A stretch of DNA of 64,000 nt. Origin: Escherichia coli O127:H6 str. E2348/69. Its GTDB lineage: Bacteria; Pseudomonadota; Gammaproteobacteria; Enterobacterales; Enterobacteriaceae. Each line of letters starts with the position of its first letter. Position 1 is the first letter of the stretch. The translations under genes were made by a program, and so were the position numbers. The notes under the pieces were generated by a model. That model ran no database searches and was not told where the DNA came from. It was given only the letters and a program-made list of their open reading frames with translations. Below are positions 26,533 to 29,354 of this stretch, in pieces. The stretch lies in assembly GCF_000026545.1 (NCBI RefSeq), contig NC_011601.1, one strand, 5' to 3'.

Positions 26533-26769
26533 CTAGCGCTTACCTTCCGCCAGCAGCGGCGGGATGCTCGGCACCATCGGCGCGTCATCAATATCTTTCT
26601 GCGTCATGCGGAACGCTTCGGGATAATGTTCGCGGCTGGTGCGGCGCAGCGGTTCGGTATCGCGCCAGGTATAGAGGCAATGCTGGCACTGGTAGACCGT
26701 CCAGACATCTTTTACCGGCGATTTCGCCATCACTTCAATCTGTTCATCAGCACAACGTGGACAAATCAT
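26533..26769 (-). CDS. ecdD: Hydroxyaromatic acid decarboxylase small subunit (EcdD/KpdD/BsdD-like), 78 aa
   Basis: Small Cys-rich protein (CPRC...CQHC) immediately downstream of the UbiD-like gene, the typical BCD arrangement. Confidence 0.75.
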   Translation of the reverse strand: MICPRCADEQIEVMAKSPVKDVWTVYQCQHCLYTWRDTEPLRRTSREHYPEAFRMTQKDIDDAPMVPSIPPLLAEGKR

Positions 26770-26779
26770 CTTGTTCTCC

Positions 26780-28207
26780 TTATTTACGTGCGGCCAGCAT
26801 AGCGGTCAGTTTTTCAGCCCAGGCTTTGGTTTCCGGTAAATCCACCACCGGCTGGCTGTAGTGACCACGGTTGTCCGGAGCGACAGGCGTGGTGGCGTCG
26901 ATAATCAGCTTGTCGGTGATACCGGCCGGGCTTGAGCCGGGGTCGAGTTCCAGCACGGACATATTCGGCAACTGCACCAAATCCCCTGCCGGGTTCACTT
27001 TCGAAGAGAGCGCCCACATCACCTGCGGCAGGTTGAACGGATCAACGTCTTCATCGACCATAATCACCATCTTCACGTAGCCCAGACCGTGCGGCGTGGT
27101 CATCGCACGCAGGCCCACCGCGCGGGCAAAGCCGCCGTAGCGTTTTTTGGTGGAGATAATCGCCAGCAGGCCGTGGGTGTACATGGCGTTTACCGCCTGC
27201 ACTTCCGGGAACTCGGCTTTCAATTGCTGATACAGCGGCACACAGGTGGCTGGCCCCATCAGGTAGTCGATTTCTGTCCACGGCATGCCGAGGTACAGCG
27301 ATTCGAAAATCGGCCTGGTGCGGTAAGAGACTTTATCGATACGCACCACGGTCATGTTACGCCCGCCGGAGTAGTGCCCGGTAAACTCACCGAACGGCCC
27401 TTCGATTTCGCGTTTACGGCTTTCGATGACCCCTTCGAGGATCACTTCCGAGCCCCACGGCACATCAAAACCGGTCAGCGGGGCGGTGGCGATCGGGTAC
27501 GGGCTTTCGCGCAGCGCGCCTGCCATTTCATACTCAGACTGATCGTATTTCAGCGGCGTGGCCCCCATCAGGGTGATGATCGGATCGTTACCGAGCGTGA
27601 TTGCAATCGGCAGATCTTCACCGCGCTCTTCCGCTTTATGCAGATGCAGGGCGATATCGTGCATCGGCACCGGTTGCAGACCGAGCTTACGCTTACCCTT
27701 CACTTCCATACGGTAGATGCCGACGTTCTGCTTGCCGAAGTTATCCGGATCAAGCGGATCGCGGGAAACCACGCACGCTTTGTCGAGATAGAAACCGCCA
27801 TCACCGTCGTTTAAACGAAACAGTGGCAGAATATCGAACAGGTTGATCTCGTCGCCATCGACGGTGTTCTGCGCCCAGGCTGGATTGGCGCGGCGCTCCG
27901 GGGCAATGGGGAAGTTATCCCAGCGGCGGATAAACTCATCAATCTGTTTTTTAACCGGGGTGTTTGGCGGCAGGCCGAGGGAAATCGCGTGGTTCTGCCA
28001 GGAACCGATGGTGTTCATTGCCACGCGGGCATCGATAAAGCCGCGAATATTATCAAACCAAAGCGCGGGCGCGCCGTCGCCGATACGCCCGGTGGCGTTG
28101 GCTGCGGCTGCCAGATCCGGTTCCGCGTTCACCTCTTCGCTGATTTTCAGTAACTGGCCGTGGTCATCAAGCGCCTGTAAAAAGCTGCGTAAATCATCAA
28201 ATGCCAT
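26780..28207 (-). CDS. ecdC: UbiD-family reversible hydroxyarylic acid decarboxylase, catalytic subunit (EcdC-like), 475 aa
   Basis: Full-length UbiD-family protein MAFDDLRSFLQALDDHGQLLKISEEV... Confidence 0.85.
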   Translation of the reverse strand: MAFDDLRSFLQALDDHGQLLKISEEVNAEPDLAAAANATGRIGDGAPALWFDNIRGFIDARVAMNTIGSWQNHAISLGLPPNTPVKKQIDEFIRRWDNFPIAPERRANPAWAQNTVDGDEINLFDILPLFRLNDGDGGFYLDKACVVSRDPLDPDNFGKQNVGIYRMEVKGKRKLGLQPVPMHDIALHLHKAEERGEDLPIAITLGNDPIITLMGATPLKYDQSEYEMAGALRESPYPIATAPLTGFDVPWGSEVILEGVIESRKREIEGPFGEFTGHYSGGRNMTVVRIDKVSYRTRPIFESLYLGMPWTEIDYLMGPATCVPLYQQLKAEFPEVQAVNAMYTHGLLAIISTKKRYGGFARAVGLRAMTTPHGLGYVKMVIMVDEDVDPFNLPQVMWALSSKVNPAGDLVQLPNMSVLELDPGSSPAGITDKLIIDATTPVAPDNRGHYSQPVVDLPETKAWAEKLTAMLAARK

Positions 28208-28800
28208 TATTCATTCTCCTGAGAAAAATTCCGGGCCTGCGGCAATCCTTGCCAGCGCCTGGCGTGAGGATGTTCGAGGCCAAATTGATCCAGCACGCGG
28301 GCTACCACGTGGTGGACAATGTCATCTACCGTTTCGGGATGGTTATAAAAGGCAGGCATCGGCGGCACCATCGCCACGCCCATGCGTGAAAGTGCGAGCA
28401 TATTTTCGAGATGGATGGTGCTAAGCGGCGTTTCACGCGGCACCAGCACTAGTTTGCGGCCTTCTTTGAGCACGACGTCCGCCGCGCGCCCCACCAGGCC
28501 ATCGGCGTAACCGGCACGGATACCGGCGAGCGTTTTCATACTGCACGGAATAACGATCATGCCGTCGGTACGAAAGGAACCTGAGGAGATGGTCGCCGCC
28601 TGATCCGCCGGGTTATGGCTGAAGTCTGCGAGGGCAGCAACATCGTGGGCGCTGTAAGGCGTTTCCAGTTCAATGGTGGTTTTCGCCCACGTCGACATCA
28701 CCAGATGAGTCTCGACATTCGGCATCTCCCGCAGCGCTTGCAGTAATGCCACACCAAGAGGCGCACCGGTAGCCCCTGTCATCCCGACGATCAGTTTCAT
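28207..28800 (-). CDS. ecdB: UbiX-family flavin prenyltransferase (EcdB/Pad1-like), 197 aa
   Basis: MKLIVGMTGATGAPLGVALLQAL... matches the UbiX/Pad1 flavoprotein family; overlaps ecdC by 1 nt. Confidence 0.85.
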   Translation of the reverse strand: MKLIVGMTGATGAPLGVALLQALREMPNVETHLVMSTWAKTTIELETPYSAHDVAALADFSHNPADQAATISSGSFRTDGMIVIPCSMKTLAGIRAGYADGLVGRAADVVLKEGRKLVLVPRETPLSTIHLENMLALSRMGVAMVPPMPAFYNHPETVDDIVHHVVARVLDQFGLEHPHARRWQGLPQARNFSQENE

Positions 28801-28946
28801 TGCTTACTCTCTAAATTGTTCGTATACGAACGTTATTATTAAAATACGCCTCTGTTTTCATCGCGGCAAGCGCTGAAAAGTAACAACATCTTCTTCGTCA
28901 CTGAAAAACCGCTATGATAGCGGCAGATAGTTTGCCCGGAGTTTAC

Positions 28947-29354
28947 ATGGCGTTACGAAATAAAGCGTTCCATCAGTTACGACAGCTTTTTCAGCAGCAT
29001 ACAGCTCGCTGGCAGCACGAGTTACCTGACCTGACCAAACCACAGTACGCGGTGATGCGCGCCATTGCTGATAAGCCTGGTATCGAACAGGTGGCACTGA
29101 TAGAAGCAGCAGTCAGCACCAAAGCAACGCTGGCAGAAATGTTGGCAAGAATGGAAAATCGTGGCTTAGTCAGACGTGAACATGACGCCGCTGACAAGCG
29201 GCGACGCTTTGTCTGGCTGACTGCCGAAGGAGAAAAGGTACTTGCTGCGGCGATCCCCATTGGTGACAGCGTGGATGAGGAATTTTTGGGGCGTTTGAGT
29301 GCAGAAGAGCAGGAGCTGTTTATGCAGTTGGTGCGCAAGATGATGAACACATAG
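28947..29354 (+). CDS. hosA: MarR/SlyA-family transcriptional regulator HosA-like (135 aa)
   Basis: Winged-helix MarR domain; divergent from ecdBCD as in E. coli O157-type strains (from memory). Start set at the internal ATG. Confidence 0.75.
   Translation: MALRNKAFHQLRQLFQQHTARWQHELPDLTKPQYAVMRAIADKPGIEQVALIEAAVSTKATLAEMLARMENRGLVRREHDAADKRRRFVWLTAEGEKVLAAAIPIGDSVDEEFLGRLSAEEQELFMQLVRKMMNT

Follow-up and report, generated by a model that had tools for sequence, protein, structure and literature searches.

The hosA-ecdBCD cassette beside rpoS in Escherichia coli E2348/69: a predicted reversible hydroxyarylic acid decarboxylase system and probable ancestral neighbour of rpoS

Gene organization and limits of the cassette

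The window, that is, the whole 64,000-nt stretch of Escherichia coli O127:H6 DNA analysed here, carries a four-gene cassette between ygbN (25130-26494, plus strand) on its left and rpoS (29474 to about 30467, minus strand) on its right, and the list of open reading frames (ORFs) of the window confirmed its genes to the base. Three of them lie on the minus strand: ecdB (vdcB/pad1-type, 28207..28800), coding for a predicted UbiX-family flavin prenyltransferase of 197 aa that makes prenylated FMN (prFMN); ecdC (vdcC-type, 26780..28207), coding for a predicted UbiD-family, prFMN-dependent hydroxyarylic acid decarboxylase of 475 aa; and ecdD (vdcD-type, 26533..26769), whose 78-aa product is a zinc-ribbon small subunit predicted to activate EcdC. 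Because ecdB and ecdC overlap by 1 nt and only 10 nt separate ecdC from ecdD, we assign them to a single operon in the order B-C-D. The fourth gene, hosA (28947..29354, plus strand), is divergent from this operon and encodes a 135-aa MarR-family repressor predicted to sense 4-hydroxybenzoate (4-HBA). The gene lengths, the B-C-D order and the divergent MarR-type regulator reported in the first-pass annotation match the ORF list exactly, and its placement of the strain outside K-12 agrees with the 100% identity of the window to E2348/69. The start of hosA is best placed at 28947, on the basis of a GGAG Shine-Dalgarno sequence 6 nt upstream, the RefSeq start and the full-length match to the structure described below; a start at 28914, giving a 146-aa ORF, was rejected for want of a ribosome-binding site.

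The whole polymorphic cassette, delimited by BLAST breakpoints against K-12, O157:H7 and ST131, covers 26533..29427 (2,895 bp), and is the segment known in the literature as the "2.9 Kb region downstream of rpoS". K-12 homology stops at 26532 and restarts at 29428, and both boundaries are bidirectional terminator hairpins. The left one (26503..26530), common to ygbN and ecdD, is an inverted repeat whose 13-nt arms are 100% complementary, with folding energies of -17.1 and -18.1 kcal/mol on the two strands (z-scores -3.2 and -4.4). The right one (29427..29460), found in the terminator scan and common to rpoS and hosA, reaches -24.5 kcal/mol on the minus strand (z-score -4.5). A REP-like palindromic element (29365..29397, plus strand) lies within the cassette, in the interval that separates hosA from the rpoS terminator; it has 1 mismatch to a REP-type consensus, and the window has no other match (0 expected). 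All four cassette genes are intact. The cassette has 56-59% G+C and the flanks about 52%, and an Rfam scan of the whole window gave no RNA family either within the cassette or close to it. The adjoining rpoS shows the +1 G frameshift already known from the streptomycin-resistant E2348/69 stock that was sequenced.

Assignment of the enzyme subunits

Each enzyme subunit exceeded the curated cut-off of the corresponding Vdc family. EcdC scored 788.9 bits on NCBIfam VdcC NF041204 (cut-off 650, E=1e-237, profile positions 2-466 of 467), EcdB 311 bits on VdcB NF041206 (cut-off 290, E=2e-93) and EcdD 121 bits on VdcD NF041205 (cut-off 30, E=1e-35), all of them matches far better than chance would give. 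On the core UbiD equivalog NF008175, which has a cut-off of 788, EcdC reached only 173 bits. The earlier reading of these genes as a decarboxylase-type BCD set, as opposed to core ubiX/ubiD, is borne out by these scores.

Among proteins of solved structure, EcdC matches ShVdcC of Sedimentibacter hydroxybenzoicus (PDB 7AE4) over residues 3-471 with E=3e-160, E. coli UbiD (PDB 2IDB/5M1C) at E about 1e-46 and AroY-type structures at E about 1e-25 to 1e-27. Its motifs NVGIYR (161-166), MHD (182-184), SEYE (224-227) and EGPFGE (269-274) are conserved in the ShVdcC alignment, in which R166, E269 and E274, as well as the N161/H183/E225 motifs, are identical. By matching of their spacing to Fdc1 numbering, these are the putative catalytic-triad and metal-binding residues.

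EcdB also passed the UbiX-family subfamily models, including TIGR00421 (246 bits, cut-off 109), and differs by 4 substitutions over residues 1-197 (about 98% identity) from PDB 1SBZ, the Pad1 protein of E. coli O157:H7. Its top raw score, 341 bits, was to BagM/FevK, an assignment that we rejected as lying under the curated cut-off of 420. EcdD matches ShVdcD (PDB 7AE4 chain a), and the cysteines of its two CXXC zinc knuckles (Cys 3, 6, 28 and 31) are the four zinc ligands of that protein (PMC8379154). For three of the four cassette proteins, a crystal structure exists for the E. coli protein or a close homologue.

HosA, its operator and a putative promoter

HosA is identical at 135 of 135 residues to PDB 8AGA, "Transcriptional regulator HosA", and MarR-family models also match it. 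A perfect 14-bp palindrome, GTTCGTATACGAAC, at 28818..28831, 17 nt upstream of the ecdB ATG, is assigned as its operator; it is the only match in the 64 kb at up to 1 mismatch, with 0.14 expected at up to 2 mismatches. The binding-site oligonucleotides used in the study of HosA from strain UMN026, in which 4-HBA dissociated the protein from the 14-bp palindrome (Kd 4.74 uM), have the same sequence context as the operator in the window (PMC6261655). The half-sites GTTCG-N4-CGAAC are kept at the equivalent position in 76 of 80 related loci.

A sigma-70 promoter scan of 26400-29600 returned no site at the scanner threshold. By manual reading, we find a putative sigma-70 promoter of ecdBCD at 28841..28869 (minus strand), composed of a -35 element TTGCCG (28869-28864), a 17-nt spacer and a -10 element TATTTT (28846-28841). 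This assignment is weak because it matches 8 of 12 consensus positions and is sub-threshold for the scanner. The putative promoter would put the operator at about +3 to +17, in agreement with the published placement of the HosA site downstream of the transcription start; according to a secondary summary of that work, HosA represses both its own gene and the operon.

Distribution among E. coli genomes

When 5,426 complete E. coli genomes were surveyed with junction probes, 1,591 were assigned to the E2348/69-type pattern and 806 to the O157 pattern, while the K-12 pattern, in which the cassette is absent, was found in 1,945 and the B2-ExPEC alternative cassette in 1,042; altogether 55% of the genomes, K-12 included, are without the cassette. 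Carriers include commensal and environmental strains, not pathogens alone. The layout of the window is the published pattern IV of the o454-nlpD polymorphism, for which E2348/69 is the reference strain, and the cassette itself shows no difference from that strain.

BLAST comparison confirmed the statement in the first-pass annotation that ygbN stands next to rpoS in K-12, where about 9 bp (TGTGCACAG) replace the cassette and the same genes are missing from this site. Its statement that O157-type and other lineages carry the genes holds for O157:H7 and for many lineages, but the neighbourhood it gave does not hold for O157:H7, in which the cassette adjoins pphB, not ygbN, because ygbI-N is absent there. 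The cassettes of E2348/69 and O157:H7 (pattern I), which also appear under the names pad1/yclC/yclD and kpdBCD-slyA, are the same locus, and the window differs in carrying ygbI-N, and hence ygbN as left neighbour.

Evolutionary direction

At least 14 genera of Enterobacteriaceae share the order nlpD-rpoS-hosA-ecdBCD-(pphB)-mutS, namely Escherichia sp., Pseudocitrobacter, Citrobacter, Enterobacter, Klebsiella, Kluyvera, Leclercia, Lelliottia, Atlantibacter, Kosakonia, Franconibacter, Mangrovibacter, Cedecea and Pluralibacter. The B-C-D order recurs in 80 related loci, with B missing from about 12 of them. The amino acid identity of EcdC is 96-97% in most of the Enterobacteriaceae genera, 92-93% in Franconibacter and Mangrovibacter, and 88% to a Vibrio. 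At the third codon position, the identity is 62-69% for ecdC, 55-64% for mutS and 59-68% for nlpD, and the synonymous sites of ecdC are diverged as in mutS, or saturated.

Synteny across at least 14 genera, together with the core-like synonymous divergence, leads us to conclude that K-12 lost the cassette. On this comparative evidence, we consider its place beside rpoS to be the ancestral state in Enterobacteriaceae, from which the K-12-type lineages departed by clean deletion of the cassette between the two terminators. The "insertion" of the first-pass annotation therefore has the wrong polarity.

The opposite view, that of a recent horizontal island, truly inserted and conferring a pathogen-specific trait, is largely refuted, and we judge it very improbable, although several observations could be quoted in its favour. 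The presence of the cassette varies among strains, its G+C content exceeds that of the flanks, and a preprint (10.1101/2024.04.24.590444) asserts horizontal acquisition by transfer from Shigella. In Pseudocitrobacter, moreover, ecdCD has 94% nucleotide identity to E. coli against 81-85% for the flanks, showing that local exchange occurs. Against an island stand the gene order kept across the 14 named genera, the occurrence in commensal and environmental strains, and the synonymous-site divergence in line with that of flanking core genes; the same third-codon-position comparison led us to reject the higher G+C content as a sign of foreign origin. The ORF list and the repeat search gave no integrase, transposase, tRNA or flanking repeat at the cassette, and the search for direct repeats and terminal inverted repeats at the boundaries returned nothing beyond the two terminator hairpins and some short pairs at chance level, on which ground a mobile island was rejected.

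Comparison with known systems

The cassette has its three-component B/C/D logic in common with ShVdcCD (PDB 7AE4/7AE5) and with BsdBCD/VdcBCD of Bacillus subtilis. These are Firmicutes orthologues, and EcdC and ShVdcC, in spite of E=3e-160, are not near-identical. ShVdcCD has the catalytic motifs and the four-cysteine zinc-ribbon D subunit at the same residue numbers as EcdC and EcdD; the D subunits are more diverged than the C subunits, the C-terminal half being different and the salt-bridge residue R12 of ShVdcD being E12 in EcdD. Unlike in the Firmicutes orthologues, control by HosA is an enterobacterial feature.

Closer relatives are KpdBCD of Klebsiella and EcdBCD of Enterobacter cloacae, which are orthologous cassettes at the equivalent chromosomal position in other genera, with identities of 96-97% for EcdC, 87% for EcdB and 86-91% for EcdD. 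In muconate engineering, these serve as the 4-hydroxybenzoate decarboxylase paired with AroY, the B protein supplying prFMN. Readers should be aware of a name clash, since "Ecd" in metabolic-engineering papers denotes the Enterobacter cloacae decarboxylase. Core UbiX and UbiD have their superfamilies and prFMN cofactor chemistry in common with EcdB and EcdC. Unlike core UbiD, EcdC appears to need a D subunit and to take a soluble, non-prenylated substrate, and it is dispensable as well as strain-variable.

Proposed function and alternative explanations

We are highly confident that the region is a hosA-ecdBCD cassette specifying a substrate-inducible, non-oxidative and reversible hydroxyarylic acid decarboxylase system, and that it is an ancestral neighbour of rpoS lost in K-12-type lineages. 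In the proposed mechanism, EcdB would make prFMN, which EcdC would use together with Mn2+, K+ and an E-R-E catalytic triad, probably as a hexamer like its homologue, to remove CO2 reversibly and convert 4-hydroxybenzoate to phenol and vanillate to guaiacol. The four-cysteine zinc ribbon of EcdD would bind EcdC beside the triad and be required for activity. The HosA dimer would occupy GTTCGTATACGAAC, immediately downstream from the ecdB promoter, and block transcription, until binding of 4-hydroxybenzoate released it and induced the operon. From homologues and literature, we infer the cofactor chemistry, the substrate range and where the promoter and transcription start lie, and by the same route the physiological role is probably detoxification or turnover of phenolic acids derived from plants or the gut. 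Decarboxylation of 4-hydroxybenzoate or vanillate, as predicted in the first-pass annotation, fits the close homology to the characterised ShVdcCD and the 4-HBA-responsive HosA; ShVdcC requires VdcD, a zinc ribbon, and its substrates are 4-HBA and vanillate (PMC8379154). The E. coli-specific enzymology follows the accounts that later papers give of Lupa et al. (2005) and of Roy and Ranjan (2016).

It could be argued that the genes are paralogues of core ubiX/ubiD engaged in ubiquinone biosynthesis and decarboxylating 3-octaprenyl-4-hydroxybenzoate, since EcdB and EcdC belong to the UbiX/UbiD superfamilies, EcdC detects E. coli UbiD at E about 1e-46, and the identity of the EcdB cofactor with that of UbiX makes a UbiX backup plausible. 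This is scarcely credible when EcdC, at 173 bits far under the core UbiD cut-off, reaches 789 on VdcC, when the operon includes a VdcD subunit that UbiD does not use and has a repressor that senses free 4-HBA, and when more than half of E. coli, including the ubiquinone-making K-12, do without the cassette. That the true substrate is another aromatic acid, such as protocatechuate (AroY-like) or gallate (LpdC-like), also seems highly unlikely. In the UbiD family, substrate range is broad and sequence is a poor guide to it, and AroY-type structures are detectable, but EcdC is far nearer to ShVdcC, for which 4-HBA and vanillate were the assayed substrates, than to AroY; AroY works without a D subunit, whereas this operon retains one, and the cognate regulator HosA responds to 4-HBA.

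That the cassette does more than scavenge or detoxify phenolic acids from outside, and has a conserved role akin to housekeeping, is improbable in our estimation. What speaks for it is the conservation pattern, namely the high EcdC identity combined with diverged synonymous sites and with retention beside rpoS in most genera, and a candidate role could be the trimming of the cell's own pool of 4-hydroxybenzoate, a ubiquinone precursor, in the stationary or anaerobic phase. If so, there would be a physiological cost or other effect wherever E. coli lineages have repeatedly lost the cassette.

Significance

The locus, its proteins, regulator, operator and inducer, and its polymorphism among strains, have already been published, and the cassette is to be regarded as a well-characterised, ordinary system. 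Production of phenol from 4-hydroxybenzoate by gut Enterobacteriaceae has some bearing on the host uraemic-toxin load, which is already recognised (PMC6424909). As a marker, the cassette types the window as o454-nlpD pattern IV; in combination with the +1 G allele of rpoS, it identifies the streptomycin-resistant E2348/69 stock that was sequenced. What the present analysis clarifies is the direction of change: the cassette appears to be ancestral and its absence from K-12 a loss, which corrects the preprint's claim of transfer from Shigella.

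Gene organization and family assignment

The hosA-ecdBCD cassette (26533-29427, 2,895 bp) lies between ygbN (25130-26494, plus strand) on the left and rpoS (minus strand, from 29474) on the right. The ORF table gives ecdD (26533-26769, 78 aa), ecdC (26780-28207, 475 aa) and ecdB (28207-28800, 197 aa) on the minus strand and the divergent hosA (28947-29354, 135 aa) on the plus strand, exactly reproducing the three B-C-D genes and the divergent regulator of the first-pass annotation. Because ecdB and ecdC overlap by one base and a 10-nt gap separates ecdC from ecdD, these genes form a compact B-C-D operon. 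The hosA start is best placed at 28947, since GGAG is read 6 nt 5' of this ATG, RefSeq uses the same start, and HosA is identical over 135 residues to seven HosA entries deposited in PDB, 8AGA among them; an in-frame ATG at 28914 lacks a ribosome-binding site.

Families were assigned with NCBIfam models having curated cut-offs, and the earlier reading of ecdBCD-type decarboxylase genes held on all three: EcdB passed the VdcB model (311 bits, cut-off 290), EcdC the VdcC model (789 bits, cut-off 650) and EcdD the VdcD model (121 bits, cut-off 30). On the core UbiD equivalog model EcdC scored 173 bits, far below the cut-off of 788, so that the ecd genes are not core ubiquinone genes; this answers the refuting condition set in the first-pass annotation, that they be core ubiX/ubiD paralogues. 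EcdB was also considered as BagM/FevK and rejected, its 341 bits being under that model's cut-off of 420. Over its whole length EcdB differs from Pad1 of E. coli O157:H7 (PDB 1SBZ) by four substitutions; prFMN synthesis is the established role of B proteins of the UbiX/Pad1 kind.

EcdC and EcdD both have their matches in PDB 7AE4, from Sedimentibacter hydroxybenzoicus: EcdC in ShVdcC (residues 3-471, E=3e-160) and EcdD in the ShVdcD chain. Work on the homologue has shown that VdcC without VdcD is essentially inactive, that VdcD is a zinc ribbon (ligands C3, C6, C28 and C31) bound tightly beside the loops bearing the catalytic E-R-E triad and needed for activity, that VdcCD acts on 4-hydroxybenzoate and vanillate, and that its reconstitution requires UbiX-made prFMN and Mn2+ (PMC8379154). 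EcdD resembles ShVdcD in having cysteines at the same positions 3, 6, 28 and 31, and EcdC keeps in alignment all four motifs of ShVdcC, namely NVGIYR (161-166), MHD (182-184), SEYE (224-227) and EGPFGE (269-274). By Fdc1 numbering, and on the support here of identical spacing only, we take R166, E269 and E274 to be the triad and N161, H183 and E225 to be the metal ligands.

HosA operator

Between hosA and ecdB lie 146 bp, which include a perfect 14-bp palindrome, GTTCGTATACGAAC (28818-28831), that precedes the ecdB ATG by 17 nt. It occurs once in the 64-kb window, where 0.14 matches would be expected at up to two mismatches, and its core and flanks are the same as those of the HosA binding-site oligonucleotides in the supplement of PMC6261655; the same study reports that 4-hydroxybenzoate (4-HBA), for which the Kd is 4.74 uM, releases HosA from this site. 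Comparison across genomes strongly supports the operator: of 80 related loci, 76 have GTTCG-N4-CGAAC in the corresponding place, and the other four are loci without upstream sequence.

As far as the preprint 10.1101/2024.04.24.590444 summarises Roy and Ranjan (2016), HosA represses both its own gene and the decarboxylase operon, whose expression rises several-fold with 4-HBA, and the palindrome, located downstream of the transcription start, acts as a roadblock. A putative ecdB promoter read manually (-35 TTGCCG, 28869-28864; 17-nt spacer; -10 TATTTT, 28846-28841) would fit this picture; only 8 of its 12 positions agree with the consensus, and the automatic promoter scan made no call for it. 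Some species, unlike the window with its single site, have an additional operator-like site, 56-73 bp upstream of the main HosA operator on the hosA side (comparison loci L007 5318, L008 5321, L027 5320, L037 5321, L063 5300, L067 5844, L069 5302, L070 5292 and L073 5821).

rpoS frameshift and other features of the window

In a 15.1-kb comparison with another E2348/69 record (NZ_CP059840.2), the only difference is a single indel, an additional G in rpoS of the window at about 30077-30079 (minus strand), which leaves ORFs at 29474-29992 and 30063-30503. The sense strand reads GCG GGT AGA GAA GTT TGA, and RpoS is truncated after residue 130 plus four missense residues (...LIRAGREV*). This is the guanine insertion published at rpoS position 390 in sequenced streptomycin-resistant E2348/69 (PMC5491219); among 5,426 complete genomes it is common only to NZ_LT827011.1 and NZ_LT903847.1, both O127:H6. 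Two comparison strains also carry rpoS pseudogenes, K-12 HMS174 with an internal stop (L002 3189-4181) and O157:H7 86-24 with a frameshift (L003 7954-8947), illustrating how frequently rpoS is inactivated in laboratory stocks.

At Rfam gathering thresholds the window also contains the Hfq-binding sRNA STnc490 (1-103, cut by the window start) and sok antitoxin RNA (41904-42053), which implies a hok/sok-type locus.

Boundaries and strain polymorphism

Homology to K-12 ends on the left at 26532, directly after the ygbN terminator hairpin and directly before the ecdD stop codon, and starts again at the rpoS terminator (29428); both boundary hairpins fold well on either strand. In K-12 about 9 bp (TGTGCACAG) replace the cassette. 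There was no integrase or transposase at the cassette in the ORF table, and the repeat search found no repeats at its boundaries. A single-copy REP-like palindromic element, GCCGGATGCGACGCTATCGCGGCTTATCCAGCC (29365-29397), lies within the cassette between hosA and the rpoS terminator, and O157:H7 has a diverged copy at the same place.

A 3.1-kb locus probe is 100% identical to E2348/69 (EPEC O127:H6). We take this strain to belong to phylogroup B2, and it has pattern IV despite that membership. Ewers et al. (2014; PMC4209514) described four layouts, patterns I-IV, with E2348/69 as the pattern IV reference, and found pattern IV in 0 of 250 B2 strains. Using 200-bp junction-spanning probes against 5,426 complete genomes, we counted pattern I (O157; pphB/ecdDCB-hosA/rpoS, without ygbI-N) in 806, pattern II (K-12; ygbN/rpoS) in 1,945, pattern III (B2 ExPEC; ygbN/MBL-fold hydrolase and flavodoxin/rpoS) in 1,042 and pattern IV (the window; ygbN/ecdDCB-hosA/rpoS) in 1,591, together 5,384 genomes (99%). 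The cassette is thus present in about 44%, a figure consistent with the count of genomes carrying 80% or more of the full cassette (2,379). These layouts bear out the first-pass statement that K-12 has ygbN next to rpoS and that O157-type lineages carry the cassette, as well as the placement of the strain outside K-12.

In ST131 18044 (L004), the MBL-fold metallo-hydrolase and flavodoxin-family genes of pattern III occupy the ygbN-rpoS site (8238-10057), and an IS1A element (4339-5036) breaks otnK (ygbK) in the adjacent ygbI-N cluster. Against O157:H7, identity is only 93.6% over mutS-pphB (window 16463-20443, L003 980-4971) and 97.7% from the cassette to the truD side, which fits the known mosaic, recombining mutS region.

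Ancestry of the cassette

With each species represented by one genome, a scan gave 80 loci (L005-L084) with EcdC at 88-99% identity, whose neighbour genes were mapped by tblastn. The order nlpD-rpoS-hosA-ecdB-ecdC-ecdD-(pphB)-mutS occurs in Escherichia sp. E1V33, Pseudocitrobacter, Citrobacter, Enterobacter, Klebsiella, Kluyvera, Leclercia, Lelliottia, Atlantibacter, Kosakonia, Franconibacter, Mangrovibacter, Cedecea and Pluralibacter. Phytobacter and two subspecies of Salmonella enterica, arizonae and diarizonae, have an inverted cassette with respect to rpoS (mutS-hosA-ecdBCD-rpoS-nlpD; L020, L022, L026, L047, L050), and in Pantoea, Erwinia, Rahnella and Vibrio salinus the cassette occupies another genomic location. 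Divergence was measured as third-codon-position identity at conserved residues, in the same genomes for all genes, and was 62-69% for ecdC, 55-64% for mutS and 59-68% for nlpD. Since gene order is conserved and third-position identity is like that of mutS and nlpD, the cassette is vertically inherited and ancestral beside rpoS. K-12-type strains have lost it, and ygbI-N is the segment added between ecdD and pphB. An ancestral cassette contradicts the transfer from Shigella inferred in the preprint 10.1101/2024.04.24.590444.

Exchange on a smaller scale is suggested for one lineage. In Pseudocitrobacter vendiensis (L008 6001-7672; also L007 and L009) ecdC and ecdD are 94% identical to E. coli at the nucleotide level and 83-84% at third codon positions, whereas the adjacent genes are far more diverged (ecdB 81%, hosA 70%, mutS 85%), which suggests a localised ecdCD exchange between the two lineages. 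EcdC is also unusually constrained for a strain-variable gene: its amino acid identity is 96-97% in most Enterobacteriaceae genera, against 93-96% for MutS, and 92-93% in Franconibacter and Mangrovibacter, and it is 88% identical to that of Vibrio salinus, where synonymous sites are saturated (39% third-position identity).

In about a dozen species, including Superficieibacter, Pluralibacter, Cedecea, Chimaeribacter, Mangrovibacter phragmitis, Siccibacter, Rouxiella and some Rahnella and Erwinia, hosA is directly beside ecdC without ecdB (L041, L052, L054, L062, L065, L067, L073, L074, L076, L079, L083, L084); the operator stays with the operon's first gene, and core UbiX presumably supplies prFMN in these species.

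The genes, structures, regulator, operator, inducer and polymorphism typing scheme at this locus have all been described already. The first-pass observation is confirmed and its interpretation supported except for the polarity of the event, which had been called an insertion; by synteny and third-position identity that polarity is wrong. The absence of the cassette from K-12 represents a loss, not an insertion elsewhere.
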